Assembly: GCA_018401745.1 (NCBI GenBank)
Contig: JAGYJY010000008.1
Location: forward strand, 31,699 to 95,698
DNA: 64,000 nucleotides
Origin: Pirellulales bacterium
Lineage (GTDB): Bacteria; Planctomycetota; Planctomycetia; Pirellulales; UBA1268
Direction: 5' to 3'
Shown here: positions 32,367-63,726 of the stretch, one piece after another
How positions within the stretch are numbered: the stretch's first letter is position 1
Layout: every line of letters begins with the position of its first letter
Translations under genes and position numbers: made by a program
Notes under the pieces: generated by a model
The model's database searches: none
What the model saw: the letters and a program-made list of their open reading frames with translations, nothing else
What the model was told of the DNA's origin: nothing

Positions 32367-34687
32367 ATGTTCATTCTTCATGCAAGCAGCCGGTCTGCCA
32401 ACTCGTTTCACGGTCTCGCGAGCCTGCGACGGGTGCTGACTGTGGCCCTGCTGGCACTCGGGAGTTCCCCTGCCGTGGCAGCCGCAGCCGACACCGCTTC
32501 CACTGGAGAGACGCCGATGCCCGCCACAAACCAGACCACCAGTGACGATCCGCACCTCTGGCTTGAAGAGGTGCTCGGCGACGACGCCCTGGCCTGGGTG
32601 CGGCAACGCAACGAGCAGACACTCGAGCAGCTGGCGAAACGCCCGATGTTCTCCAGCCTTGAGGCGACGCTGCAGACGATTCTCGACGACGACCAGCGGA
32701 TTCCCGCGGTCACGAAGCGGGGCGATTTTTTCTACAACTTCTGGCGAGACAAGACTCATCCGCGAGGCCTCTGGCGCCGGACGACGCTGGCGGAATACCG
32801 TCGCCACGCCCCTGCCTGGGAGGTGCTGCTCGACCTTGATGCCCTCGGTCAGCAGGAAGATGAAAACTGGGTCTGGGCCGGCGCCAAGGTGCTCAGGCCT
32901 GCCTGCAGCCGCGCCCTCGTGCAGCTCTCCAGAGGCGGTGCCGACGCCAGGGTGGTCCGCGAGTTCGACCTGACGACGAAGCAGTTTGTCGATGATGGCT
33001 TTGAGGTGCCCGAGGCGAAGGGCTCGGTCAGCTGGATCGACGACAACCACATCTTCGTGGCCTCCGACTTCGGTCCCGGCTCGATGACCGACTCCGGCTA
33101 CCCACGCACCGTTCGCCTGTGGCAGCGGGGCACACCGCTGGCCGATGCGACCGTGGTCTTTGAGGGCAGCCCTCAGGACATGTCGGTGTCGGCCTTCCAC
33201 GACGATTCCCCTGGCTACGAGCGGGACTACGTGCGGAGGACCCCGTCCTTCTACGCCGACGAGATGTTTGTGCGGGAGGCCGATAGCCGCCTGCGGAAGA
33301 TTGAGGTGCCCGACTCCGCATCCAAGGGCATCTTCCGCGGCCTCCTCACGGTGGAGCTCCGCGAGCCCTGGCAGCATGGCGGCACCACCTATCAGGCCGG
33401 CACGCTGCTGCTGGCAGACCTGGAGTCGTTTCTGGCGGCCGAAAGTGGCACGGTCCCGCCTGAGCAGCGTCCGCTGGCTGTGGCCTTCGAACCCGATGCG
33501 CGGCAGGCCCTGGCCGCAGCGACCTTCACCAAAAACGCGCTGGCGCTGACGATCCTGGCGGACGTGAAGAACCGGGTGGAGGTGATCGACCTCAGCGGCT
33601 GCGACACGGGGTCGCCCGCCGAACGCATCGCTCTGATCCGCCAGACGGTGTCAGACCACCGCATCCTTCGCCGCAGGTCCGGAGATCGGCACCGTCAGCC
33701 TCGGTGCCGTCGACGCCGACGAGTCCGATGAGGTCTTCGTGACCACCACTGGCTTCCTCGAGCCGACCGCACTCGCGCTGGGCTCGCTGGCCTCTCCCGA
33801 AGCCCTGACGGAGCCCCTCAAGGAGCTGCCGAGCTTCTTCGAAACCGCAGGGCTCAGCGTGCAGCAGCACTTCGCCACGAGCGATGACGGCACCCGCGTT
33901 CCCTACTTCCTGATCGGCCCGGCCGAGAAGCTCGCAGGCGCAGGGGCGGGCGACGCAGCCGTGCCATCCGGCAGTCCCACGGTGCTCTATGCCTACGGTG
34001 GCTTCGAGATCTCCCTCCTGCCGCGCTACGACCCTCTTGTTGGCAAGGCCTGGCTGGAGAAGGGCGGGGTGTATGCCATCGCCAACATCCGCGGTGGGGG
34101 CGAGTATGGCCCTCGCTGGCACCAGGCCGCGCTCAAAGCCAACCGGCTGCGGGCCTACGAGGACTGCGCGGCGGTCGCCCGCGACCTCATTGAGCGGGAC
34201 ATCACCACGCCAGCGCAGCTGGCCGTCAAGGGTGGCTCCAACGGTGGCCTGCTGGTGGGCAACATGCTCACCAGCTATCCGCAGCTCTTCGCTGCAACCG
34301 TCTGCCAGGTGCCGCTGCTCGACATGCAGCGGTATAGCCAGCTGCTCGCGGGGGCGTCGTGGATGCAGGAATACGGCAATCCCGACAAGCCAGAGGAGTG
34401 GGCGTTTCTCAAAAACTTCTCCCCCTACCACAAGGTCGAGGAGCGGGGCCTCGCGAGGCCGGCCTATCCGATCACGCTGCTGCTGACCTCCACTCGTGAT
34501 GACCGCGTGCATCCTGGGCACGCCCGCAAGATGATGGCCAAGCTGGAAGCAGCTGGGGCATCCGGCCCTCTACTACGAAAACATCGAGGGAGGCCATGGA
34601 GGCGCAGCGACCAACAAGCAGCAGGCCTTCATGCAGTCGCTGGCCTGGACATTTCTTGCCGAGCAGCTGGGCCTGACGAGCGACTGA
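32367..34687 (+). pseudogene. Prolyl oligopeptidase (S9) family serine peptidase, reading frame broken twice
   Basis: Signal peptide and propeller half in ORF 32367..33731; catalytic half (GGSNGGLLVG nucleophile region, DDRVHP) in ORF 33739... The first break lies within 33637-33690. Removing one G from the GGGG at 34555-34558 restores ...EAAGHPALYYENIEGGHGGAATNKQQAFMQSLAWTFLAEQLGLTSD with a stop at 34685-34687. Confidence 0.8.
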
Positions 34688-36240: not shown

Positions 36241-37062
36241 ATGCGTGCAAACGTCTGTGGGCAGCAGAGGCGACGGGCCGCTGCCGTGAGGATCGCTGTT
36301 GAGTCGGGCCGCTGCCTCAGCGACTTCGCATGGCTGCCTACGAAACGGCTGTCTGCTGCGGCGTTGACAGCCGCTACCGCGGTGGCGATCACCACGCTGA
36401 GCATCGGCCCGACGCTCTGCCAGGCCGACGAGCCTTCCGCAGCCGGCAACGACCAGCCGGCGGCCGTTGCGGAAGCGACCGACAGCTGGCAGCCTCTCTT
36501 CGACGGGAAGACCCTCGCAGGCTGGAAATCGACGGCGTTTGGCGGCGAGGGAGAAGTCTCGGTGAAGGAAGGTGCGATTCGCATAGAACGCGGCTCAGAA
36601 CTCAGCGGCATCACCTGGCAGCAGGAGTTTCCCAAAGACGGCTACGCGATCACCCTCGAGGCGAGCCGCGTCGACGGCTACGACTTTTTCTGCGGGCTGA
36701 CCTTTCCTGTGGGTGAAGAGCCGTGCAGTTTCATCGTCGGCGGCTGGGGCGGAGGCGTGGTCGGTCTCTCCAGCATCGATGGAGCCGATGCGGCCCACAA
36801 CGACACCACCGAATGGAAGGAGTTTGAAACGGGCAAGTGGTATCGCATCACGATCGAAGTCGGAAAAGACGCGATCCGCTGCTGGATCGGCGATGAGCAG
36901 CTGGTCGATCAGCCGCGCGATGGCCATGAGTTTTCGATTCGCCCAGAGGTGTTTCTCTCCAAGCCTCTGGGCATCTCCTGCTACGGCACGGTGGCCGCCA
37001 TTCGTGACGTCCGCTACCGACTTCTCGATGCCAAAAGCGACACCGACCGCCCAAGTAAATGA
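36241..37062 (+). CDS. DUF1080 (3-keto-disaccharide hydrolase-like) secreted protein
   Basis: WQPLFDGKTLAGWK, a GAIRIE...G region, a WYRITIEV core and a terminal IRDVRYRLL. Signal-like N-terminus. ATG 36241 is preceded by GAGGGGG. Confidence 0.75.
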   Translation: MRANVCGQQRRRAAAVRIAVESGRCLSDFAWLPTKRLSAAALTAATAVAITTLSIGPTLCQADEPSAAGNDQPAAVAEATDSWQPLFDGKTLAGWKSTAFGGEGEVSVKEGAIRIERGSELSGITWQQEFPKDGYAITLEASRVDGYDFFCGLTFPVGEEPCSFIVGGWGGGVVGLSSIDGADAAHNDTTEWKEFETGKWYRITIEVGKDAIRCWIGDEQLVDQPRDGHEFSIRPEVFLSKPLGISCYGTVAAIRDVRYRLLDAKSDTDRPSK

Positions 37063-37081
37063 TTCGTGCGGCTAGCTGTCT

Positions 37082-37112
37082 GTGGAAAAAGCCATCCAAG
37101 GCCTTTTTCCAC
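37082..37112. terminator. Possible bidirectional hairpin between convergent genes
   Basis: GTGGAAAAAGCC-ATCCAA-GGCCTTTTTCCAC forms a 12-13 bp stem with one bulge between the DUF1080 stop and the mdh stop. No clean trailing U-run. Confidence 0.35.
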
Positions 37113-37291
37113 CTGGGCAACACCCGAAAACGCCGAGGGTTTTCAGGGTTGCCGATCGCCGCATCCTGCGGCGGCGGACTATTTCCACAGTCTGCTAGCG
37201 AGGACAAGCACCCGTGGACACGCACCGACGGCTTCATGAGCCGCGATGACGACCGCGACTGGTGCGCGGAGCCCGCATACCAGCTGGCGGC

Positions 37292-38224
37292 TCAGCCTCT
37301 CCCGAGGACCTGCCCGAGGGTTTCCATCAGCACGCTGCCGCTCCGCTTGAGCCCCTGGAGCTCTTTGGGCCAGAGGTCGATCTCGAGGCACCGCTCGGCT
37401 CCGCCACGGCCCACCACGGTGGGAACGGAGAGGGCGACGTCCCGCAGGCCGTAGCAGCCCCGTTGCACGGTCGAGACCGGCAGGATCCGCTTTGAGTCGA
37501 GTGCGATCGCGTGGATCACCTCGGCAATCGACACGCCGACGGCGAAGCCGGCACCGGTCTTCTTCTTGATCATCTCAGCACCCGACGTCTTGGCCCGCAG
37601 GAAGACCTCCTCGCCGAGCTTTGTCGTGAAGCCAGGAAACTTCTCCATTGGCAGGCCGCCGATGCTCGCGCTCGACCAGATCGGCACCATGCTGTCGCCA
37701 TGCTCGCCGAGGATCACGGCCGACACCTGCGTGGCAGGAGCCCCAAGCCGCATCGCCAGCAGGCTGCGGAAGCGGAGCGTGTCGAGCAGGGTGCCTAGGC
37801 CAACCACATGCCCCTGCGGCAGCGAGAGCTCTCGCTCGGCGAGCGCGGTGAGGATGTCGACGGGATTGCTGACCACCAGCACGATCGCGTCGCTCCGCAT
37901 GCCCGCTGAGGTCAGGCTGCCGAGGATCGTGCGGAAGAGCTCCACGTTGCGGTTGATCAAGGCAAGCCGGCTCTCGTCGGGCTTCCGCCGCAGGCCGGCA
38001 GTGATGCAGATCAGATCGGCATCGGCCAGGCTCTCGTAGCCGCCGGCATAGATCGCCTGATCGGCCACGGCTGCCGTGCCATGGAGCATGTCGAGCGCCT
38101 GGCCGTCTGCCAGATCGGCATTGGCGTCAACGATCACGATCTCATGAACAACGCCGCCAAGCTGCAGGGCAAAGCCTGCCGACGAACCAACGATCCCACC
38201 GCCTCCAATGATCCCGACCTTCAT
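37292..38224 (-). CDS. mdh: LDH/MDH-family dehydrogenase, probably malate dehydrogenase
   Basis: MKVGIIGGGGIVGSS Rossmann start and a GEHGDS motif. The substrate-specificity position reads ITAGLRRKP (Arg where L-LDH has Gln), which favours MDH. Confidence 0.85.
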   Translation of the reverse strand: MKVGIIGGGGIVGSSAGFALQLGGVVHEIVIVDANADLADGQALDMLHGTAAVADQAIYAGGYESLADADLICITAGLRRKPDESRLALINRNVELFRTILGSLTSAGMRSDAIVLVVSNPVDILTALAERELSLPQGHVVGLGTLLDTLRFRSLLAMRLGAPATQVSAVILGEHGDSMVPIWSSASIGGLPMEKFPGFTTKLGEEVFLRAKTSGAEMIKKKTGAGFAVGVSIAEVIHAIALDSKRILPVSTVQRGCYGLRDVALSVPTVVGRGGAERCLEIDLWPKELQGLKRSGSVLMETLGQVLGRG

Positions 38225-38304
38225 GGGCTCGATTCCTCTGTTTCAAAGTGCTCTGTGTTGTGTCTGTCGCTTTCGCTGCTGCCACCCGAAGGGCCGCTGC
38301 AGCC

Positions 38305-39195
38305 TTAGCTGCCGATGCCCAGCTGACGGCAGACTTCTTCGGTGACCGCCTTCACCAGGGCTTCCTTGTCGAGCCCTGCCGGAACAGCCGGCGCCGCAGC
38401 CGAGGCGGGCATGGCCGGTGGCGGCACAAAGGCCTTGCGGTCGACGCCGCTCTGGCCCCAGCTCGCGCGGAAGACGTCGTTGGCGCAGATGTCGCAGTCG
38501 GCGAGTTCGTCGGTGAGCCGAGGATCCTTGAAGCCCCACTGCTTCTTCAGGTCGAGCAGCTCCTGGGTTTCATTCTTGGAGAGGTAGGTGACGCGGCCGA
38601 GATCCTTGGCGAGCATCAGGATGCGGCAGTAGGCGTCGAGAATCTCGGTCCACCAGTAGGCCTTCTCCACGCTCTCGCCGAAGCTGACCGTGCCGTGGTT
38701 GGCCAGGATCACGACGCTGCTCTTCTGCACGAAGGGCTTCACCGTGTCGGCAAACTTCTGTCCGCCGGGCGTCTCGTAGCGGGTGATCGGCACATCCCCG
38801 AGGAAGACCTCGACCTCAGGCAGCACGCACTGCGGGATCGGCTCACGGGCCACCGCGAACGCCGTGGCATGCGGCGGGTGGCAGTGCACCACGCTCTTCA
38901 CGTCGGGCCGCTCCTTCATGATCGTCAGATGCAGCAGCACTTCGCTCGAACGCTTGCGATGGCCTGCGAGCTGCTTGCCCTCCATGTCGACAATGCAGAG
39001 GTCGGAGGGCTTCATGAAGCCCTTGCAGATCTGCGTCGGCGTGCAGAGCACCTCGTTGGGCCCGAGCCGAAATGAGATGTTGCCGTCGTTGCCGGCAGCA
39101 AAGCCCTTGTTGTAGATCCGGCGGCCGATGTCGCAGATTTCTTCCTTGAGCTTGGAAAGCGGCTTGTCGGTGGTGGGGCCGGCTGGCATTGCCAT
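38305..39195 (-). CDS. Class II aldolase (fuculose/rhamnulose-1-phosphate aldolase-like) with a C-terminal encapsulation peptide
   Basis: GNDGNISFR, HCHPPHATAF and ILANHGTVSFG motifs. The C-terminus is a Pro/Ala linker followed by the amphipathic LDKEALVKAVTEEVCRQL. Confidence 0.85.
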   Translation of the reverse strand: MAMPAGPTTDKPLSKLKEEICDIGRRIYNKGFAAGNDGNISFRLGPNEVLCTPTQICKGFMKPSDLCIVDMEGKQLAGHRKRSSEVLLHLTIMKERPDVKSVVHCHPPHATAFAVAREPIPQCVLPEVEVFLGDVPITRYETPGGQKFADTVKPFVQKSSVVILANHGTVSFGESVEKAYWWTEILDAYCRILMLAKDLGRVTYLSKNETQELLDLKKQWGFKDPRLTDELADCDICANDVFRASWGQSGVDRKAFVPPPAMPASAAAPAVPAGLDKEALVKAVTEEVCRQLGIGS

Positions 39196-39330
39196 GACTG
39201 CGATACTCCTTGTGGAATCTCTGGGGGGATCTGTTTGTGTTTGTTGGCTGGGTCGGCTCGTTGCCCAGCACTCAACTCTGCACGACTTTTTTGCTTGCGG
39301 TCTTTGTGGCGATCACGAAACGCAGACACA

Positions 39331-39639
39331 TCACTCCGCCTGCGCCGGTTCTGAGGGTTGAAGGGGCAGGTTGAGGCGGTCGATGATCGCCGCCACAAAG
39401 GCGTCCACCGGTCGCATCTCGGGCCGGAAGGGCTGAGCTGCCTCGCCCCCCTCAGAGAAGGCGACGAGCTGGCCAACGCCAGCCCCGAGGCAGTCCCAGG
39501 CGACCAGCGGCTCGGCTGGGCCATCGCCGGCTGCCAAGTCGTCGGCCGAGAGCGGCACCAGCATGCGGAGCATGCCTCCCCGCATCGCGGGGTGGGCCTG
39601 GGAGAGCGTGACCGATCCGATGACGCGGGCGAGTCTCAT
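39331..39639 (-). CDS. BMC-P (EutN/CcmL-family) pentameric vertex protein
   Basis: MRLARVIGSVTLSQ..., DCLGAGVGQLVAFSEGGEA, PVDAFVAAIID. ATG overlaps the upstream stop as ATGA. Confidence 0.8.
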   Translation of the reverse strand: MRLARVIGSVTLSQAHPAMRGGMLRMLVPLSADDLAAGDGPAEPLVAWDCLGAGVGQLVAFSEGGEAAQPFRPEMRPVDAFVAAIIDRLNLPLQPSEPAQAE

Positions 39640-40436
39640 GGCGTGGCCTCCTGGGCGGTGCTGCTGCAGCTGCAGGGGCGGCTGGCTGCAGCCAGATCGG
39701 CGGGCAGTGGCTGGTGCAGCTGTTTGGCAAACTCCACAGCCAGCCGCTGCAGACCTCCGGGGCCGAGCCGGCTCGGGTCGACCACCACGAGCGTGGCCCG
39801 ACACTCCTGGGCAAGCTGCAGCGCGTCGCGAACGCCCGTGGCCACCACCGCCCGGATCGTCCGCTTCCGGTTGGCGATCAAGGCGGCAGCCGCAGGCCGC
39901 GGAGAAAGCAGGAGGCCACGTGATCCGCTGCGGCTGGCGGCCTCGGCAAAGGCGTCGACAAGGCTGGCGATTCCCGCCGCTGGCAGCTGCTGGCCGTGCG
40001 GAACAGCGCGAGCCACGGCCGCCGCCTGGGCGACACAACGGCCAGGCAGATCGCAGGCGGCCACCAGGAAGGCTGGCGACCCAGCCTCCGCAGCCGCCGA
40101 GGTCGCTGCCTGAGCCATCCGCCGGAATGTGATCCGGCGGTCGGTGAGCCACTCGCGGGCCGAGGGCGTCAGCACGGCATCATGCCGCACGGTCACCTCG
40201 CGAAGGTCGCGAGGGAGTTTGGCCACGCTCGCAAGCACCACCACCTTCTCCGCCAGCATGGGAGCTGCAGCGGGGGGCTCAGCCGCCTGCATCGAGGCGG
40301 CTGCGGGGGCGGCGGGCGGCGAGGTTCCGTGCGATGCCGCACCGGCCGTCAGCCGGCGGACCACATCGGCTGCAATGCGGGCCACGAGCTGCTCCAGCTC
40401 GGTCGACGGCATGCGTGTGTTCGGTGCGGCAGGCAT
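39636..40436 (-). CDS. BMC-associated protein of unknown function with an N-terminal encapsulation-peptide-like helix
   Basis: N-terminal TELEQLVARIAADVVRRL followed by a Pro/Ala linker. The rest has no motif I recognise. It is embedded between two BMC-P genes. Confidence 0.6.
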   Translation of the reverse strand: MPAAPNTRMPSTELEQLVARIAADVVRRLTAGAASHGTSPPAAPAAASMQAAEPPAAAPMLAEKVVVLASVAKLPRDLREVTVRHDAVLTPSAREWLTDRRITFRRMAQAATSAAAEAGSPAFLVAACDLPGRCVAQAAAVARAVPHGQQLPAAGIASLVDAFAEAASRSGSRGLLLSPRPAAAALIANRKRTIRAVVATGVRDALQLAQECRATLVVVDPSRLGPGGLQRLAVEFAKQLHQPLPADLAAASRPCSCSSTAQEATP

Positions 40437-40442
40437 CAAGGA

Positions 40443-40724
40443 CTACATCTGTGAGGGAAGAGCAGGGGAGTCGACCAGGGCAATCGCACTCCATCGCGCT
40501 GGGGTGGTGTCGCTGCCAAGCAGCCCGCGGAGGGTGGCACCGTCGCTGGTGATCACCACCAGATCGCCCACCGCCGCCGCCACCGTATCGATCGCCAGCT
40601 GGGGGTCGCCGTCGGCCGTCGTGCGATCAGCCATGACCGGCTGCACCACCAGCAGCCGACGCCCCTCAAGGGACGCATGCTTCACGGTGGCGATCGCGGT
40701 GCCGAGAACGTGGGCGAGCTGCAT
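40443..40724 (-). CDS. BMC-P (EutN/CcmL-family) vertex protein
   Basis: MQLAHVLGTAIATVKH..GRRLLVVQP...AIDTVAAAVGDLVVITSDG...AIALVD. Confidence 0.8.
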   Translation of the reverse strand: MQLAHVLGTAIATVKHASLEGRRLLVVQPVMADRTTADGDPQLAIDTVAAAVGDLVVITSDGATLRGLLGSDTTPARWSAIALVDSPALPSQM

Positions 40725-40798
40725 GATGAAAAACGTGGGGAAGGGTGAGGTCTCAGGTCGTCAAACCGGGGCCGGGCCCATGGGGGCAGGCGGTGGAA

Positions 40799-42277
40799 TC
40801 AGGCAACCGCGTCGGGGCTGCCCAGGATGCGGAGGTCGTCGACCAGGGTGCACCGCCGCTGCCGGGTGAAGGTCAGCGGGGTGGTGACCCCTTCGCCGGT
40901 CGGCGTGGCGATGGAAAACGAGAGGTAGCCCTCGCCGCCGAGGCCCAGGCCTGCAACGCTCGGGCCGTTCTTCACAAACAGGGTGGTGTCGAGCAGGCGG
41001 CCCATCCGCGTCATCGTGCGGACGTTCGTCGAGTGGATGATCGCGGTGTGGCGGAAGCCGTGCTCGCTCTCGTGGGCCCGCTCAATCGCCTCGTCGACGG
41101 TGCGGCAGCGGACAAACGGCAGGAAGGGCATCATCTGCTCAGTGGGCACAAACGGGTTGTCGAGGTCGGTCTCACCAAAGACAAGCTCCAGCCGCTCGTC
41201 GGCCGTCGCACCAGCCGCCTTGGCCAGCAGGGCCGCATCCTTGCCGAGGAGATCCTTGCAGGGCACCGGGTGCCGATGCTCGCCTTCGCCCGCCATCACA
41301 ATCGCCCGCTTGGTGAGGGCATCGACCTGGGAGGCTGTCAGGCGAAGGCCACCGGCCCGCTCCATGGCGGCCATCATCGCGTCAAACACGCTCGCCACGA
41401 CGAAGACCTGTTTCTCACCGATGCAGAGCAGGTTGTTGTCGTAGGCAGCTCCCTGGATGATCGACCGAGCTGCCCGGTCGAGGTCGGCCGTCTCGTCGAC
41501 GACCACCGGCGGGTTGCCGGGGCCAGCCACGATCGCCCGCTTGGTCGACTGCAGGGCCGCCCGAGCCACCGCCGGGCCGCCGGTCACGCAGATCAGCTTC
41601 ACACCGCGATGGGCAAAGAGCTCGGAGGCCGATTCAAGGGTCGGTTCAGCCACAAGGGTGATCAGGTTGTCGACACCGAGGTCGCGATAGATCGCCTGGT
41701 TGAAGCGACGCACTCCCTCGGCGGCCACCTGACGGCCGCTGGGATGCGGATTGACCACCACCGTGTTGCCACCAGCAATCATGTTGACGGCGTTGCAGGC
41801 GATGGTCGGCAGCGAATGGGTCACCGGCGTGATCGCACCAATCACGCCGAAGGGAGCATGCTCGATCACGGCGAGGCCGTGGTCTCCACTGAAGACCTGG
41901 CTCTGAAGAAACTCCACCCCCGGCACCTTCTCACCGAGAACGCCCAGCTTTTCAATCTTATGGTCGAGCCGGCCGATCTTGGTCTCCGCAAACTCCATGC
42001 GGCCGAGCTCTTCGGCGTCTTCGATGGCGATGCGGCGGATGTGGGAGATCGCCCGCTTGCGGCCGTCGACACCGAGCCGCTCAAGCTGCTCAAAGGCATC
42101 GGTGGCGGCCCGCACGGCCTCATCAACGCTGGAGAAAACGCCGTTGGCACCGGCGAGTGACCCGCTGGCCACCGGCCCTGCGACCGGAGCAGCAGCAGCC
42201 GATGGCTGGCCGATTTCAGCGATCACCTGACGGACGATGCTGGCGATACTGTGGGGATCGATGGTGGCTGTAGACAT
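40799..42277 (-). CDS. CoA-acylating aldehyde dehydrogenase (PduP/EutE-like) with an N-terminal encapsulation peptide
   Basis: N-terminal helix [15 protein letters not shown] plus an Ala/Pro linker. ALDH core with the catalytic-Cys region ([15 protein letters not shown]). Confidence 0.85.
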
Positions 42278-42280
42278 GGG

Positions 42281-42607
42281 TTAGGCATTCCTTGAAAAGA
42301 CATCGTGGCCCTCGACCGTCACCGCATCGACGAGGCCGATCACCACCGCGTCGATCGGCAGCGTCTTGGTTTCGGGGGTCATGCGGGCGCTCGACCCTTG
42401 GGTCACCAGCACAAACTCACCTTCGCCCGCCCCCAGGGCGTCGACGGCAATGAAGGTGCGGCCGGTCGACACGAGCCGGTCGCGGCCCGCCCCGTTGGCC
42501 TTTGCCTCCGCGAGCCGGTAGGGCTCCACGATCAGCAGCTTGTGGCCGGTCATCGACGCCGCTTTCTGCGTGGCGATGATCGATCCGGTGACGCGTGCAA
42601 TGAACAT
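42281..42607 (-). CDS. BMC-P (EutN/CcmL-family) vertex protein
   Basis: MFIARVTGSIIATQK...GHKLLIVEP...AVDALGAGEGEFVLVTQGSSAR...PIDAVVIGLVD. Confidence 0.85.
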   Translation of the reverse strand: MFIARVTGSIIATQKAASMTGHKLLIVEPYRLAEAKANGAGRDRLVSTGRTFIAVDALGAGEGEFVLVTQGSSARMTPETKTLPIDAVVIGLVDAVTVEGHDVFSRNA

Positions 42608-42634
42608 CGGTGGCCTCGGGTGAGTAGGTTCGTT

Positions 42635-43849
42635 TCAGTTGGCTGCGAGCAGGTCGCGAGTCTGACGGGCGACGACGATCTCTTCGTTGGTGGGAATGAC
42701 CCAGATCGCCACGCGGCTGCCGGCCGCATGGATCGGCCGCTCGCCGCTGCCGGCGGTGTTGGCTTCGGCATCGAGCTGGATGCCAAGGTCTTCCAGGCCA
42801 CGGCAGACTTCCTCGCGAACCAGCGGGGAGTTCTCGCCGATCCCACCGGCAAAGCCGAGTCCATCGAGCCCGCCGAGTTCGACGAGGCCACCACCGAGCC
42901 AGTGGCGAATGGCAGCCACATAGACAGCAATCGCATCGGCCGCCCGCTGGCTTCCACCCTCGGCAGCAGCCTCGAGGTCCCGCATGTCGCCCGAGGTGCC
43001 CGACATGCCTGCCAGCCCGCTGTGCGACGAGAGCTCATTGAGCAGGTCGTCGAAGGAGCGGCCAGTGGCCTTTGCCATGTGCCGGAGCACGAAGGGGTCG
43101 ACATCACCGGCCCGGTTGTTTTGCGGCAGCCCAGACTGGGGGCTCATGCCCATCGAGGCTCCCACACTCTGCCCGTCCCGGAGCCAGCAGACGCTGCTTG
43201 AGCCACCGAGGTGGCAGGAGACCGCGCGGTGCGGGCGTCCTGCGGCCGCCGGCACACGCTGCTGCAGCCGACCGGCGACATAGCGATGGCTGGCCCCATG
43301 AAAGCCCCATCGCCTCACCAGGTGCTCCTCGACCCATGCGGTCGGAACCGCATAGAGCGCGTTGCGGGTGGGGATGGTGGCGTGGAAGCCCGTCTCAAAC
43401 GCTGCCACCAGCGGCACGCCGGGCAGCCTGGCGGCCACCGTTCGCATCGCGTTGACGTAGGGTGGATTGTGGGCTGGAGCGACTTCGGCCATTTCCTCCA
43501 TCGCTGCCAACACCTCGGGTGTCACGCGGGTGACACCCCCAGCCCTTCCGCCATGCACCGCCTTGAAGCCCACCGCGGCCACCTCAGCAACATCCCTGAG
43601 TGGACCGCCCGCCCCTGTGAGCTGCCCAAGAGCCGCCTCAAGGGCGACGCCATGGTCGGGCACGGGCTGAACCGCTTCGAGCACCGCCTCGCCCGCTGAG
43701 GCGTAGACACGGCTTTCCGCAGCCCCGATCCGCTCCACGCCGCCCCGTGCCAGCTCTGTTTCCGCCCCAGCCGACGTCGCAGCGTCGGGCAGGTCGAAAA
43801 GCCGGTACTTGAAGCTCGTGGAGCCGAGGTTGGCAACAAGGATCTTCAT
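42635..43849 (-). CDS. ackA: Acetate (short-chain acyl) kinase
   Basis: MKILVANLGSTSFKYRLFD N-terminus, GFHGASHRYV, GGIGENS. Confidence 0.9.
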   Translation of the reverse strand: MKILVANLGSTSFKYRLFDLPDAATSAGAETELARGGVERIGAAESRVYASAGEAVLEAVQPVPDHGVALEAALGQLTGAGGPLRDVAEVAAVGFKAVHGGRAGGVTRVTPEVLAAMEEMAEVAPAHNPPYVNAMRTVAARLPGVPLVAAFETGFHATIPTRNALYAVPTAWVEEHLVRRWGFHGASHRYVAGRLQQRVPAAAGRPHRAVSCHLGGSSSVCWLRDGQSVGASMGMSPQSGLPQNNRAGDVDPFVLRHMAKATGRSFDDLLNELSSHSGLAGMSGTSGDMRDLEAAAEGGSQRAADAIAVYVAAIRHWLGGGLVELGGLDGLGFAGGIGENSPLVREEVCRGLEDLGIQLDAEANTAGSGERPIHAAGSRVAIWVIPTNEEIVVARQTRDLLAAN

Positions 43850-43889
43850 CGACAGTCGTCTCCTCCGTGATGGCTCAGCGACAGGCGTC

Positions 43890-44159
43890 TCACGAAAAGA
43901 ACGCTGCCGTGAGGCTCTCCGCTGGACGAGGGATCACGTGGCTGGCGACCAGATCGCCCACCTGCGCCGCGGCATTGCTACCGGCTTCCACAGCCGCTCG
44001 CACGCTGCCCACATCTCCCTGCACCACGGTGGTCACAAACGCGCCGCCGATGCTGACCCGCTTGAGGACCTTCACGTTGGCCGCCTTGGCCATGGCGTCG
44101 GTCGCCTCAACGAGGCCCACCAGACCCTTGGTCTCAATCAATCCGATAGCCGTATTCAT
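43890..44159 (-). CDS. BMC-H hexameric shell protein
   Basis: AIGLIETKGLVGLVEATDAMAKAANVKV...GDVGSVRAAVEAG is a canonical BMC domain. ATG at 44159. Confidence 0.85.
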   Translation of the reverse strand: MNTAIGLIETKGLVGLVEATDAMAKAANVKVLKRVSIGGAFVTTVVQGDVGSVRAAVEAGSNAAAQVGDLVASHVIPRPAESLTAAFFS

Positions 44160-44213
44160 GAGTTGTTTCCTGAAGAAGAGAACATGAGATTTCAACACCA
44201 CCCAGGCAGGCGA

Positions 44214-44513
44214 TCAGTCGCTAGCGCCGGGCAACGAGACGGGCAGCACGACATGCAGATCATCGTGCGGACGTGGAATGACCTGCACACTGACCACATC
44301 GCCAATCCGGCCGGCTGCCGCTGCCCCGGCGTCGGTTGCTGCCTTCACGGCGGCCACATCGCCCGAGACAAATGCCGTCACGAGGGCACTGCCGATCTTG
44401 TCCCAACCGAGGAAGGTGACGTTGGCCGCCTTCATCATCGCGTCGACTGCCTCGACGAGCGTGACGAACCCCTTCGTCTCGATCATGCCGAGGGCTTCGA
44501 TGTTTTTTGCCAT
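44214..44513 (-). CDS. BMC-H hexameric shell protein
   Basis: [26 protein letters not shown]...[17 protein letters not shown]...VIPRPH. Confidence 0.9.
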
Positions 44514-44603
44514 CTGCTGCTCCTGAACTCCGCTCCACTCAAACCTCCGGGCGGGTGCCCGGCGGCCGTGCCGGCACGCGCCGGCAAGACGGCCATGAAT
44601 CGT

Positions 44604-45299
44604 TTACGTCTGCCGAATCAGCTCCACGCTCTCCGCATGGTCGAGGTCGGCAGCATTGCCTTCGTCGGTGTCGATGTGCACCTCAAGTTTGCTCGTCGCG
44701 TCGGCCCGCACGAGCAGGTCGCGAAACACGGTGCTGCAGCTGCCCTTGATCACAAGGCTCATGCGGTCGCCGTCACGGACACCAAAAAACTCGGCGTCGG
44801 CGTGGCTCATGTGGACATGCCGCTCGGCACGGATCACGCCCTCGGAAAGCTCAATCGCCCCAGCTGGCCCGACGAGCACGCAGCCTGGGGTGCCGGCGAT
44901 TTTGCCACTGGCGCGAACTGGGAGCGTGAGGCCGAGGGAGATCGCATCCGTGAAGGCGAGTTCCACCTGCGAGGCCTTCCGCGTAGGGCCGAGCACCCGC
45001 ACCGTCGGCAGCATTCGCCGCTTGGGCCCGACCACCATCACGGTTTCCTCGGCGGCATAAAAGCCGTCTTGGTAGAGGCTCTTCTGCGGCGTGAGCGTGC
45101 TGCCAGGGCCGAAGAGCTTCTCAACGTGCGCATCAGTTAGATGACAGTGCCGGGCGGAGATGCTGACCACGAGCTTCGGCTCGCCGGCGGGCTGCTGCGA
45201 TGGCGGCGGCTCGTGCGAGCGGAGCACGATCTCACGAACGATCCGTTCGACCTGGGAGCGATCGAGGCCCGCGGCCATGGTGGGCAGGGAAAGACTCAT
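44604..45299 (-). CDS. pduL: PduL-type phosphotransacylase with an N-terminal encapsulation peptide
   Basis: Two PduL repeats (ISARHCHL..., RAERHVHMS...). N-terminal helix [14 protein letters not shown] plus a Pro-rich linker. Confidence 0.85.
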
Positions 45300-46125
45300 G
45301 CGGCAGGCTCCTCACCGTGAGACGTGGAGAGAGTGGAGAGGTCAGCGTCGTCATCGCTGACCGGCGTGGTCACCAACCGCACACCGGCCTGGGCAACCTT
45401 CTTCCGCCATGGCGGTGCGAGGCCCTCGTCGACCACGAGGCAGTTGATATCGCTGAGCCCACAGACGAGCGTCAGGCTCCGACGTCCAAACTTGGAGCTG
45501 TCGGCCACAACAATCACGCGGCTGCCAGCCTTGAGCATTGCCTGCTCGGTTTCGGCCAGCAGCAGATGGGCGTTGAAGAGGCCTTCCTCGGCGATTCCGG
45601 CAGCGGAGAGCACGGTCGTGGAGACGTGCAGCCGGCCGAGCAGTTCGTTGGCGTAGGGGCCGAGGCAGACGCCTGTTTTGGGTGAGACGTAGCCCCCGAG
45701 CAGAACGAGATCAGTCCGCGACTCCGAGACGAACAGGTTTGCCACCGGCAGGCTGTTGGTGACCACCTGCAAAGGCCTGCCGACAAGCTGGCGGGCCACT
45801 TCGTAGGTGGTGGTGCCGCCATCGAGCAAAACGGTCTCGCCATCCTCGATTTCTTCGGCGGCGGTAGCCGCGATCGCCCGCTTGGCCGCCCAGTTGGCTG
45901 GCTGCCGCTGGTCAAACTCCTCGAGCTTCGGGCTCGGCCACCGCGATAGACGGCTCCACCATGCGTCCGCCGAGCGATGCCCTGCTCCTCGAGGAAGTCG
46001 AGATCGCGACGAATGGTCGATTCTGAAACCGCCAGCTCGCGGACAAGTTCGTCCAGCGACGCAAAGCCGCGGACGCGGATCAGGTCGGTGAGGCGGTGCC
46101 GCCGTTGCTGGGAGTGTGCTGGCAT
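45296..46125 (-). pseudogene. DeoR-family transcriptional regulator of the BMC locus, frame broken once
   Basis: The HTH half (SLDELVRELAVSESTIRRDLDFLEEQGIARRTHGGAVY) is in ORF 45514..46209. The sugar-phosphate-binding half (KRAIAATAAEEIEDGETVLLDGGTTT...) is in ORF 45296..46174. One missing base near 45935-45940 joins them. The stop overlaps the pduL ATG as ATGA. Confidence 0.8.
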
Positions 46126-46367
46126 GGTGAAACCCCGAATGCCACCAGCATGACTCAACGCGATCATTTTGCAACCGTTTTCAATCGCGTCCCGCATGGT
46201 TTCAATCAAAAACTCACAAACGACTGCCAGGAAGCAACAAAAACGTGGCTCGCCACCACACTGCGCACTCTGCGCAAACCCTGCGGCCTCCCGTCGCCCC
46301 CAAATCTAGCCCACAAAAACCCGCAAGAAAGAAAACCACCAAAAAAGGCCACAATCAGACCGCTTCC
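46126..46367 (-). promoter_or_regulatory. Comparatively AT-rich upstream region of the deoR/BMC operon (candidate promoter/operator)
   Basis: A local drop in GC directly 5' of deoR. Contains a direct repeat of GTTTCAAT(C) (CCGTTTTCAATCG / TGGTTTCAATCA). No consensus promoter identified. Confidence 0.3.
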
Positions 46368-46775
46368 CGGGACGGGCCCGCGGGTGCCGCCCGCCGTGAA
46401 CGGGACGGGTCCGCGGGTACCGCGCCGTGAACGGGACGGGTCCGCGGGTACCGCGCCGTGAACGGGACGGGTCCGCGGGCCGCGAAGCGGCCGCGGCACA
46501 GCCGAGGTGCCTGCGGCACCCGTGGACCCGTCCCGCTTGCGTAGAGGCTGACCGGCCGCTGGCCGCCGCGTCCGCGAGCGGACAGGCCCGGCCTGCAAAG
46601 CGCTTCAGCGAGCGGGTGAGCCCGGGACCTGACCCGCCGGCGTACAGGAGCCGAGCGACGCCCGGAGGGCCAAAGCGCAAGCGGATATCCGAGCCGAGCC
46701 GCAGGCCGCCTGCGAGGGCCCGCAGCGAGCGTCCGGAGGGGCAGCCCCGGGCTCACCCCGAGCGGCCCACCCACC
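46368..46775. repeat. Composite GC-rich repeat element, copy A
   Basis: Three tandem units of about 31 nt (CGGGACGGGTCCGCGGGTACCGCGCCGTGAA). Next comes a long imperfect hairpin (GGGACGGGTCCGCGGG...CCCGTGGACCCGTCCC). A 3' module is shared with copy B (GGGTGAGCCCGGG, CCCGGAGGGCNAAAGCG, GGGCTCACCCCGAGCGGCCCACCC). The element ends at the purN stop codon. Confidence 0.8.

Positions 46776-47407: not shown

Positions 47408-47411
<4 letters not shown>
46776..47411 (-). CDS. purN: Phosphoribosylglycinamide formyltransferase
   Basis: LAVFLSGSGRTLENL, NIHPSLLPAFGG, GCTVHLVDEVYDNG. Start is either GTG 47411 (GTGA overlap with the ileS stop) or ATG 47408. Confidence 0.85.
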
Positions 47412-50901
<3,490 letters not shown>

Positions 50902-61522: not shown

Positions 61523-61709
61523 CGAGCTGACGCTCCATCGCCATCGCCTCTTCTTCCCGGGACGGCCAAAATGGCAGTCGCAATGCGGGGCCCATGTCGG
61601 GGCAGCGGCAGGCCCCTCAACTGTAACTCGCCGCGGAAGCCCGTAAACACACGCTTTTGCGGCGGGTGTGGAATGTTTTCTGATCACAAATCCTGAAAAC
61701 ACCAGCCGC

Positions 61710-61725
61710 TGGCACGCCCTTTGCA
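61710..61725 (+). promoter_or_regulatory. Sigma-54-type -24/-12 promoter match upstream of dnaK
   Basis: TGGCACGCCCTTTGCA matches TGGCAC-N5-TTGCA exactly, with correct GG/GC spacing. It lies 88 nt upstream of the dnaK ATG on the sense strand. Confidence 0.4.
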
Positions 61726-61812
61726 CGTGAACTTCACTGCCCGAGCCGGCCACGCGACCGCAGGCTCAGCAGCCAACCGCAAACAGGACCCGAACCCACG
61801 AGGGAGCAGTTC

Positions 61813-63726
61813 ATGGCCAACCCCAAAGGCGAGAAGATTATCGGCATCGACTTGGGCACCACCAACTCGGTGGTGGCCGTCATGGAGGGCAGCGACCCCA
61901 AGGTGATCGCCAACAAAGACGGCGACCGTCTGACTCCGAGCGTTGTGGCGTTCAACGACAAAGGGGAAACGCTTGTCGGGGTGCAGGCCCGTCGTCAGGC
62001 GGTGACCAACCCGAAGCGGACGATCTCCTCGATCAAGCGATTCATGGGCCGCCGCCACAACGAGGTGGCCTCGGAAGAGAAGATCGTGCCCTATGAGGTC
62101 GTCGGCGGGCCGGAAGACTACGTCAAGGTCGAGGCGGGCGATCAAGAGTTCACGCCGCCAGAGATCTCGGCAAAGGTGCTGCGGGCGCTCAAAGAAGCCG
62201 CGGAAGCCTACCTCGGCCACAAGGTCAACAAGGCGGTGATCACGGTTCCGGCCTACTTCAACGATGCCCAGCGTCAGGCCACCAAAGATGCTGGCCAGAT
62301 CGCCGGCCTTGAGGTGTCGCGAATCGTCAATGAGCCGACGGCCGCAGCCCTCGCCTACGGTCTCGATAAGAAAAAGGACGAGCGGATCGTGGTCTTCGAC
62401 CTCGGCGGTGGCACCTTTGACGTGTCGGTCCTCGACGTCTCGAAGGATGGTGTGTTTCAGGTGGTCAGCACCAACGGCGACACGCATCTCGGTGGCGACG
62501 ACTTCGACCAGAAGCTGATCAACCACGTGGCCGATGCCTTCCAGAAGGAACAGGGCATTGATCTGCGAAAAGACACGATGGCCCTGCAGCGGCTCCAGGA
62601 AGCCTGCGAAAAGGCCAAGAAGGAACTCTCCAGCGCTCAGAGCACCGACATCAATCTGCCGTTCATCACGGCCGATGCCTCGGGGCCGAAGCATCTGCAG
62701 CAGGCGATCACCCGTGCCCAGTTTGAGCAGCTCACCGACGACCTGATCGAGCGGTGCCGCGGCCCGGTGATCAAGGCCCTGGAAGACGCGAAGCTGAGTC
62801 CATCGCAGATCGACGAGGTGGTGCTCGTCGGCGGCTCGACCCGCATCCCCAAGGTGCAGGAGCTCGTCAAGAAGATCTTCGGGAAAGAGGCCCACAAGGG
62901 CGTCAATCCCGATGAGGTCGTGGCCCTCGGTGCGGCGATCCAGGGCGGTGTGCTCGGCGGCGACGTGCAAGACGTGCTCCTGCTCGACGTGACCCCGCTC
63001 TCGCTCGGCATCGAGACCGAAGGCGGCATCTTCACCAAGCTCGTCGAACGAAACACCACGATTCCGACCGACAAGAAAAACGTCTTCAGCACCGCGGCCG
63101 ACAACCAGACGGCCGTTACCGTGAGCGTGTATCAGGGTGAGCGGCCGATGGCGAAAGACAACCGGCTGCTCGGCCAGTTCAATCTGGAAGGCATCCCGCC
63201 GGCTCCCCGCGGCACTCCGCAAGTTGAGGTCAAGTTTGACATCGATGCCAACGGCATCCTCAACGTGAGCGCCAAAGACCTCAGCAGCAACAAGGAGCAG
63301 ACAGTTCGCATCGAGCAGTCGAGCGGCCTCACCGAGGATGAGATCGAGCGGATGCAGAAAGATGCCGAGCAAAACGCCGAAGCAGACAAGCAGAAGCAGA
63401 AGCTGGCCGAGGCCAAGAACAAGGCTGAGAGTCTCTGCTTCCAGACCGAGAAGTTGATCAAGGAAAACGACGAAAAGCTCTCGGCCTCCGACAAGGCTCC
63501 GCTGGAGTCGGCAGTCACCAAGTGCCGCGAGCTGGCCAAGGGCGACGACGCCGACGCAATCATCTCGGCCCACGACGAGCTTGAGCAGGCCACGCATGCC
63601 CTCTCGAAGGTGCTCTACGAGGCGGCAGCGCAGCAGGGCAGCGAAGCCCCGCAGTCAGGCAGCGAGGCTGCAAAGCCGGCAGACGACGCGATCGACGCTG
63701 AGTTTGAGGTCAAGAAAGACGGGTAG
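61813..63726 (+). CDS. dnaK: Molecular chaperone DnaK (Hsp70)
   Basis: [36 protein letters not shown] and a full-length Hsp70 layout. Confidence 0.95.

Follow-up and report, generated by a model that had tools for sequence, protein, structure and literature searches.

A PVM-type bacterial microcompartment locus in a contig from an uncultured planctomycete

Gene content, order and class of the locus

A bacterial microcompartment (BMC) locus, very probably of the Planctomycetes/Verrucomicrobia microcompartment (PVM) type, was analysed in a 64,000-nt stretch of DNA from a Pirellulales bacterium (GenBank assembly GCA_018401745.1, contig JAGYJY010000008.1, positions 31,699 to 95,698). The whole of this stretch is called the window below. 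Coordinates follow its forward-strand numbering, and the locus genes all lie on the minus strand. The listing of open reading frames (ORFs) and hidden Markov model (HMM) scans revealed eleven co-directional genes at 38305-46125 (Table 1). Their order was the one given in a preliminary description of this DNA: a DeoR-family regulator, a PduL-type phosphotransacylase, two BMC-H shell proteins, an acetate kinase (AckA), a BMC-P shell protein, an acylating aldehyde dehydrogenase, a second BMC-P, a protein described as unknown, a third BMC-P and a class II aldolase. Apart from the formerly unknown protein, which is PvmL, every component of the locus matched the expected HMM in the Pfam and NCBIfam scans, and PF00936, PF03319, PF06130 and PF00596 all fell on the expected genes. 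The shell set consisted of three PF03319 (BMC-P) and two PF00936 (BMC-H) genes. A tblastn search of the 64-kb window with the shell proteins revealed no further BMC-H, BMC-P or BMC-T gene, and the initial count of three BMC-P, two BMC-H and no BMC-T was confirmed.

The preliminary description also held that no alcohol dehydrogenase for NAD+ recycling is encoded in the locus. This statement was not sustained, because the adjacent gene at 37292-38224, which lies 80 nt downstream of pvmN on the same strand, encodes PvmO, a conserved member of the locus. Among the close-family loci, each one of sufficient length has this gene right after pvmN, as do many of the distant loci. Since PvmO is part of the locus, the span becomes 37292-46125, with its end at 37292 rather than 38305, and the complete locus comprises 12 genes in 8.8 kb. 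Two junctions share 4 nt: the pvmB start overlaps the end of the DeoR gene (ATGA), and the pvmM start overlaps the end of pvmL. Together with the short intergenic gaps, these overlaps fit a single operon.

The positions and Pfam families of the locus agreed with the published PVM name table. There, PvmB is the phosphotransacylase, PvmD and PvmE are the BMC-H proteins, PvmG is the acetate kinase, PvmH, PvmK and PvmM form the BMC-P triplet, and PvmJ is the aldehyde dehydrogenase. The remaining names are PvmL, the aldolase PvmN and PvmO, a member of the Ldh_1_C family. The positions of PvmM, PvmK and PvmH were in agreement with the related loci as well. The locus combines the PF00596 signature aldolase with the PF00171 aldehyde dehydrogenase, the PF06130 phosphotransacylase, a DeoR regulator, an acetate kinase and a dehydrogenase of the lactate dehydrogenase (LDH)/malate dehydrogenase (MDH) family. 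The host also conforms to the PVM type: the nearest relatives are metagenome-assembled genomes (MAGs) of Pirellulales, Planctomycetia and Planctomycetota, and an extracytoplasmic function (ECF) sigma factor of planctomycete type (PF07638) adjoins the locus. We therefore consider it very probable that the locus is a canonical PVM-type metabolosome operon of an uncultured planctomycete, reading DeoR and then pvmB-D-E-G-H-J-K-L-M-N-O.

The locus had initially been labelled a complete "PVM-like" one. The completeness and the aldolase-based metabolosome type stood, while the label did not, since PVM-like loci (Axen 2014 cluster 4.2/4.3) form a class distinct from PVM proper (cluster 4.1), of which Sutter et al. 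2021 count 285 loci. PVM-like loci, found in Firmicutes, Solibacter and Melioribacter, share the class II aldolase signature and often a DeoR regulator. The present locus differs from them in its three BMC-P and two BMC-H genes, its PVM gene order and its planctomycete host and relatives.

The gene order was well preserved among relatives. It recurred in 60 related planctomycete contigs wherever their reach sufficed, with the exception of one without pvmL. It was kept in 19 GTDB species-representative loci, which all come from MAGs of planctomycetes (Pirellulales, Planctomycetia and, in one case, an assignment to Planctomicrobium piriforme). The same order was seen in 36 loci from metagenomes, each 6 kb or longer. 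These were fetched through distant PvmL homologues, which were searched for in metagenomes with a 12-sequence alignment as the query. Four ENA contigs, in which PvmL was 62% identical, carried the identical twelve genes in identical order. Their flanks also agreed with those of the window, with the isoleucyl-tRNA synthetase (IleRS) and PurN genes upstream, and downstream a gene with a 3-keto-disaccharide hydrolase domain followed by genes for an ECF sigma factor and for an S9 peptidase. The best GTDB species representative also had a PvmL of 62% identity. The exceptional locus, L034 (7.08-Mb contig ERZ25039592 contig_27; region 9355-9973 of L034), is an otherwise identical PVM locus, in which the gap from pvmK to pvmM is only 52 nt. 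Even in this distant locus, IleRS and PurN lie upstream, and the IleRS-PurN-DeoR-pvm placement is kept.

At the protein level, the aldehyde dehydrogenase was 80-95% and the aldolase 79-94% identical to proteins of syntenic planctomycete loci. Homologues of the aldolase in the databases numbered more than 6,700 at E <1e-30, including a 100% identical entry found in NCBI, JGI, Logan and ENA. Public databases already contain the locus proteins at 97-100% identity, and the identical PvmB occurs in 93 indexed blocks of public contigs. The PvmJ and PvmG proteins scored above the NCBIfam cut-offs (615 bits against PRK15398, cut-off 403, and 320 bits against TIGR00016, cut-off 293, respectively). In PvmJ, we take 'NNLLCIGEK' to be the active-site Cys motif. 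For pvmE, the 89-aa orthologues indicate the ATG at 44159 as the start, in place of position 44201, where the ORF opens.

Table 1. Genes and candidate features of the locus (aa, amino acids; E values from the HMM scans).
Feature	Position	Strand	Evidence
pvmO, LDH/MDH-family NAD-dependent dehydrogenase, 310 aa	37292-38224	-	Ldh_1_N 2e-32, Ldh_1_C 4e-29
pvmN, class II aldolase, 296 aa, signature enzyme	38305-39195	-	PF00596 1e-49, residues 18-193
pvmM, BMC-P paralogue 3, 102 aa	39331-39639	-	PF03319 4e-20; 102-aa gene called in identical Logan contigs
pvmL, 266 aa from ATG	39636-40436	-	No Pfam/NCBIfam match
pvmK, BMC-P paralogue 2, 93 aa	40443-40724	-	PF03319 2e-20
pvmJ, CoA-acylating aldehyde dehydrogenase, 492 aa	40799-42277	-	PF00171 6e-33, from residue 49
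pvmH, BMC-P paralogue 1, 108 aa, standard type	42281-42607	-	PF03319 4e-27
pvmG, acetate/propionate-family kinase, 404 aa	42635-43849	-	PF00871 5e-99, residues 2-395
pvmE, BMC-H, 89 aa	43890-44159	-	PF00936 2e-25; 99% identity to 89-aa orthologue
pvmD, BMC-H, 99 aa	44214-44513	-	PF00936 1e-26; 97% identity to orthologue
pvmB, PduL-type phosphotransacylase, 231 aa	44604-45299	-	PF06130 2e-71, from residue 45
DeoR-family regulator, frame-broken	45296-46125	-	HTH_DeoR 1e-16 and DeoRC 5e-45, in different frames
Candidate promoter, TTGCAA, 16 nt, CATGCT	46147-46174	-	9-sequence upstream alignment

PVM microcompartments have been characterised by experiment, are listed for hundreds of genomes and are abundant in metagenomes. 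The operon described for Planctopirus limnophila, also a planctomycete, has an identical component set, including PvmL, PvmO and an aldolase with a C-terminal peptide. No structural difference from it was seen, apart from the regulator, which is frameshifted here as sequenced, probably through an error. The present locus is a typical copy of a known system, with only two mildly new points, the RpiB-like fold of PvmL and an invariant Arg-Arg loop in PvmO. Its discovery value is small, and its use is that of a clean reference example in which all four encapsulation peptides are visible. What the analysis adds is the corrected locus boundary, the assignment of PvmL as RpiB-like and the reading of the frame break as a likely artefact.

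Encapsulation peptides and the PvmL protein

Four encapsulation peptides had been noted from the sequence, at the aldolase's C-terminal end and the N-termini of the aldehyde dehydrogenase, the phosphotransacylase and PvmL. All four were supported, each as a short, conserved amphipathic helix with a hypervariable Pro/Ala linker of differing length. In PvmN, the helix occupies aa ~275-292 (nt ~38320-38373), with the pattern 'D(K/Q)E.LV..VTE.V...LG', and follows a variable Pro/Ala linker. In PvmJ, the N-terminal helix at aa ~8-23 was conserved, and the Pro/Ala/Gly linker at aa ~24-48 was hypervariable. The conserved N-terminal helix of PvmB (aa ~13-28) is followed by a variable linker, which reads 'PPPSQ' here. 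PvmL carries the conserved N-terminal helix ELEQLVARIAADVVRRL, which corresponds to (I/V)(E/D)xIVREV(L/V)RRL in the wider family. The linkers consisted of 67-89% Pro, Ala, Ser, Gly, Thr and Gln, and the Pfam domains started or stopped well inside the four helix-bearing proteins.

The hydrophobic moment ranked the helix first in PvmL and PvmB, and was moderate and weakly supportive in PvmJ and PvmN. For the predicted helices of the latter two proteins, the conservation pattern outweighs the hydrophobic moment as evidence. The positions agree with those in a published survey of 1,065 encapsulation peptides, in which BMC aldolases bear a C-terminal peptide. No N-terminal or encapsulation extension was seen in the alignment of PvmG.

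We also noted that PvmN contains an invariant segment of ~60 aa, CDxCxND.FR..W...G..R.AF, which separates the aldolase core from the linker, at residues ~200-260 (38420-38600). It was present in 12 of 12 diverse PVM aldolases. In the usual description, the linker region is not conserved. PvmL also ends in a conserved Cys motif, PCxC, and a metal site or a disulfide might conceivably relate it to the CDxC segment.

The protein between PvmK and PvmM had been called unknown. It is true that the window protein has no family match, as it stayed below the Pfam and NCBIfam thresholds, including that of PF02502. Its identity, however, follows from its position, which is that of PvmL, a known and conserved PVM component. 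In all related loci that have pvmL, the gene lies between pvmK and pvmM. The close homologues were all unnamed planctomycete proteins, and an exhaustive profile search extended the family to 2,080 cluster representatives, 1,210 of them at E <=1e-10. The protein begins with an amphipathic helix (aa 11-34) and a disordered Pro/Ala linker (35-56), followed by a beta-alpha-beta unit with 'AVLTPSAREWL', a five-stranded RpiB/LacAB-like alpha/beta domain (aa ~120-240) and the terminal PCxC motif. Besides PCxC, the motifs 'AV(L/V/I)TP(S/A)AR(E/D)', 'RPAAAALIANR..IRAV' and 'EC(R/A)A(T/N)L(V/L)VVDP' stood out in the alignment.

An AlphaFold2 model of PvmL, built from 23 sequences, had a mean predicted local distance difference test (pLDDT) value of 76.8, which rose to ~90 over residues 120-240. 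When this predicted structure was compared with the PDB using Foldseek, the top 42 matches all belonged to the RpiB/LacAB superfamily (best E 6e-5). These chains were RpiB, two LacAB and two KduI, with probabilities of 0.97-1.0 (1.0 for the top 36) and target-normalised TM-scores of 0.41-0.79. By sequence, the close PvmL family showed a weak similarity to RpiB (E 0.04-0.1), with weak PF02502 matches in 7 of 23 members. When hhalign was used to compare the close-family profile with E. coli RpiB as a single sequence, the match was also weak, covering 32 columns at a probability of 2.7%. The similarity was significant in the wider family, where PF02502 (LacAB_rpiB) was matched by 35 of 47 diverse members (best 2.5e-10), and the broad family profile matched 21 RpiB/LacB sequences in the PDB (best 5e-6).

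Other assignments of PvmL were considered. Sutter 2021 (Supplementary Data 6) files the protein under PF02441 (Flavoprotein), but 70 scans of family members, at E values up to 1-10, gave no match to this model. The 'V.TP.ARD' motif was aligned by hhalign with the C-terminus of PduM, with no statistical support (probability 1.7%). A weak PF15953 match was seen in one family member (E 0.03), and a link to PduM is no more than a lead.

The RpiB-like domain of PvmL was examined at the positions corresponding to the active site, using an E. coli RpiB sequence verified against 1nn4. The catalytic base of RpiB is presumably Cys66 in the E. coli type or Glu75 in the M. tuberculosis type, and His99 presumably opens the ring. 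In PvmL, Cys66 is replaced by Ser178 (Thr or Ser in the family), His99 by Glu211 (variable in the family), and Glu75 by Ala. PvmL therefore shares the predicted fold and a family-level profile similarity with the RpiB/LacAB isomerases (PF02502), which include the signature enzyme of the sugar phosphate utilization (SPU) microcompartment. In contrast to these isomerases, it lacks the catalytic residues, and it adds the helix resembling an encapsulation peptide, the linker and the beta-alpha-beta unit. PvmL was also the fastest-evolving product of the operon, with 38-62% identity among loci, compared with 66-99% for the other proteins. The absence of pvmL from L034 indicated that PvmL is dispensable or lineage-specific. 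Taking these features together, we regard a non-enzymatic lumen or assembly component bearing an encapsulation peptide as the most likely identity of PvmL, at roughly even confidence. Such a protein may serve as a lumen scaffold or as an adaptor that binds sugar phosphates.

The PvmO dehydrogenase and the frame-broken regulator

In the literature, PvmO has been proposed as the core alcohol dehydrogenase and NAD+ recycler of the PVM organelle, since the locus encodes no dehydrogenase besides it and PvmJ. From the sequence, it had first been said to look like an MDH. This was right with respect to one residue, an Arg at LDH position 102, while overall the protein is closer to L-lactate dehydrogenases. 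Its best solved relative was the T. maritima L-lactate dehydrogenase (1a5z), at 225 bits, and the best MDH reached 184 bits. PvmO remained below all NCBIfam LDH and MDH cut-offs (269 bits against 304 for TIGR01771, and 250 against 283 for the MDH model PRK06223). The substrate loop reads AGLRRKPDESRL. Its second Arg aligns with LDH Gln102, as in MDHs, and is preceded by Arg101. The loop was invariant in 14 loci, and was found unaltered in L034, whose PvmO is 64% identical. The residues Arg109, Asp168, Arg171 and His195 are also kept. The alignment showed neither a terminal extension nor an encapsulation peptide in PvmO.

These features weigh against lactaldehyde as the substrate of PvmO, since the carboxylate-binding Arg171 combined with Arg102 fits a 2-oxo-acid better. 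It is possible, though we hold it only tentatively, that PvmO is a 2-oxo-acid reductase or 2-hydroxy-acid dehydrogenase rather than a lactaldehyde reductase, and that it may even act outside the shell. An enzyme of malate/oxaloacetate type, or a lactate oxidiser working downstream of the organelle, would be variants of the same idea. Arg102 is the classical MDH determinant, the four further residues retained are those of 2-oxo-acid dehydrogenases, and the 'LRRKPDESRL' loop stayed unchanged across loci down to 64% identity. The missing encapsulation peptide would also be consistent with such an enzyme, but the alcohol dehydrogenases of other BMCs lack encapsulation peptides too, and are believed to enter the shell by piggybacking. 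The proposal in the literature, moreover, gives PvmO the NAD+-recycling alcohol dehydrogenase role. A combined reading, in which PvmL is a catalytically dead pseudo-enzyme of RpiB/LacAB fold and PvmO restores NAD+ through the reduction of oxaloacetate or another 2-oxo-acid in place of lactaldehyde, seems rather unlikely to us as a whole. If PvmO did reduce a 2-oxo-acid, the PVM pathway would have a stoichiometry different from the accepted one. The pseudo-enzyme fold of PvmL and the MDH-like loop of PvmO could guide biochemical work on the two least understood components of the organelle, which is of ecological importance as a degrader of fucose and rhamnose.

The regulator gene, as had been reported from the sequence, carries a frame break. 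The break is truly present in the sequence as it stands and consists of a 2-nt "AA" insertion at ~45928, ...GGCCGAGCCCG[AA]GCTCGAGG... (CCCG[AA]GCT). It does not seem to reflect the biology of the regulator, as the AA is absent from near-identical contigs. The regulator was intact in eleven contigs with an identical PvmB, encoding 299 aa or more depending on the start codon. Four of these contigs were aligned over the regulator, at 96-98% nucleotide identity, and all lacked the AA. The alignment with L026, L029 and L030 (~97% nucleotide identity, regulator intact) and the comparison with L035 gave the same insertion in the window, and the more distant L003 and L005 were also without the 2 nt.

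Similar breaks were found elsewhere in the window. Against L035, which is 97-98% identical and has intact genes, the window showed non-triplet indels in coding regions, one in the nucleoside phosphorylase gene (PNP_UDP_1, a 1-nt deletion at ~51164) and four in the IleRS gene (near 48260, 49793, 49917 and 49956), two of which compensate each other. In tblastn comparisons, IleRS (47408-50700) and the S9 peptidase (32517-34675) each changed frame twice. IleRS is essential and intolerant of frameshifts. Together with the indels elsewhere, this implied that the break in the regulator is an assembly error as well, and a sequencing or assembly indel is its most likely explanation. It is highly improbable that the regulator is a genuine pseudogene, which would leave the operon deregulated, constitutive if the protein is a repressor and silent if it is an activator. 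The insertion is present in the given sequence, and it counts against an error that the non-triplet coding indels all lie outside pvmB-pvmO, with none in these 8 kb, and that the DeoR indel is the only one of 2 nt. Set against this are the uncompensated frameshifts in IleRS, the one in the nucleoside phosphorylase and the two frame changes in the S9 peptidase, which point to assembly error, and the intact regulator in the eleven contigs of 96-98% identity. As the assembly carries indel errors, apparent pseudogenes in it should not be read biologically.

Upstream of the regulator, at ~20 nt from its ATG, the hexamers TTGCAA and CATGCT form a weak promoter candidate. TTG was invariant, and the second hexamer was partly conserved (in at least 70% of the sequences). 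The consensus scan did not call this candidate, and scans of the locus gave no Rfam family, tRNA, consensus promoter or convincing terminator.

Proposed pathway, substrate and surroundings

The mechanism of the organelle was taken from the characterised organelle of P. limnophila, and by this homology we infer the substrates, the encapsulation, the reaction of PvmO and the role of PvmL. In the published scheme, L-fuculose-1-phosphate is split into dihydroxyacetone phosphate (DHAP) and lactaldehyde, which is then converted into 1,2-propanediol, or through lactyl-CoA and lactyl-phosphate into lactate. According to the papers citing Erbilgin et al. 2014, the PVM type has been tied experimentally to fucose and rhamnose in P. 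limnophila.

Transferred to the present locus, the scheme would run as follows. PvmD and PvmE hexamers and PvmH, PvmK and PvmM pentamers would build the shell. Inside it, PvmN, targeted by its C-terminal helix, would cleave L-fuculose-1-phosphate or L-rhamnulose-1-phosphate into DHAP and L-lactaldehyde. PvmJ, brought in by its N-terminal helix, would oxidise lactaldehyde to lactyl-CoA, yielding NADH. PvmB, also with an N-terminal helix, would convert lactyl-CoA to lactyl-phosphate and thereby recycle CoA. PvmG, without an encapsulation peptide and probably cytosolic, would form lactate and ATP from lactyl-phosphate. PvmO would be the sole candidate for NAD+ recycling, for which the literature proposes the reduction of lactaldehyde to 1,2-propanediol. 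PvmL would act as a lumen or assembly component without enzymatic activity, and the DeoR regulator, translationally coupled to pvmB, may control the operon.

This arrangement resembles that of the propanediol utilization (PDU) and ethanolamine utilization (EUT) microcompartments, with PduP/EutE, PduL, PduW and PduQ/EutG. The sequence from aldehyde to acyl-CoA, acyl-phosphate and finally acid plus ATP is shared, as are the internal recycling of CoA and NAD+ and the encapsulation peptides of the cargo. The present locus differs from PDU and EUT in that its signature enzyme is an aldolase, not a B12 enzyme, in the presence of the BMC-P triplet, and in an NAD+ recycler of the LDH/MDH family instead of an iron-containing alcohol dehydrogenase.

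The match with the PVM organelle of L-fucose and L-rhamnose catabolism, suggested from the outset, thus held for the organelle type, by gene content and synteny. The locus would by analogy degrade sugar phosphates derived from fucose or rhamnose through lactaldehyde. Several points weigh against this reading. The aldolase scored under all NCBIfam equivalog cut-offs, with 3-oxo-tetronate-4-phosphate decarboxylase as the best model (144 bits) and 112 bits for the best FucA model, and the substrate assignment therefore rests on type-level homology. The 64-kb window contains no gene for a fucose or rhamnose isomerase, kinase or transporter, or for a glycosidase or fucosidase. In addition, the organelle in this organism is known from genes alone, and the likeness to P. 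limnophila was established through the published component table. It nevertheless appears very improbable that the same organelle serves another substrate, for instance a different 6-deoxy- or 5-deoxy-ketose-1-phosphate or a compound of tetronate type, with an aldehyde other than lactaldehyde. The scores of the aldolase, the lack of fucose and rhamnose genes and the described promiscuity of class II aldolases speak for it, and against it stand the gene-for-gene synteny with the experimentally linked PVM type and the aldolase itself, which shared 68-100% identity with the 120 top database matches (those with a name come from planctomycetes), besides its closeness to the aldolases of the syntenic loci.

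The other genes of the window are housekeeping genes, encoding MurB, FtsQ, HtrA-like proteases, a DEAD-box helicase, FtsK, RpoD, DnaG, ArgJ, ArgC, PheA, IleRS and PurN. In the intergenic region between PurN and DeoR, at 46368-46479, we observed a 31-nt tandem repeat, CGGGACGGGTCCGCGGGTACCGCGCCGTGAA, in 3.5 copies with a 95% match. The repeat is absent from the rest of the window, and relatives carry indels at that site. At the other end of the locus, between pvmO and the gene with the 3-keto-disaccharide hydrolase domain, L003 and L035 have an opposite-strand gene for a hypothetical protein of 226-238 aa. The counterpart in the window (37043-37282) is only ~240 nt long, and tblastn gave no trace of the 226-238-aa gene there. 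Elsewhere in the window, two overlapping ORFs of 637 aa each lie on opposite strands, at 61684-63597 (minus) and 61813-63726 (plus), and the minus-strand ORF matches PF10712 (NAD-GH) at 3e-154.

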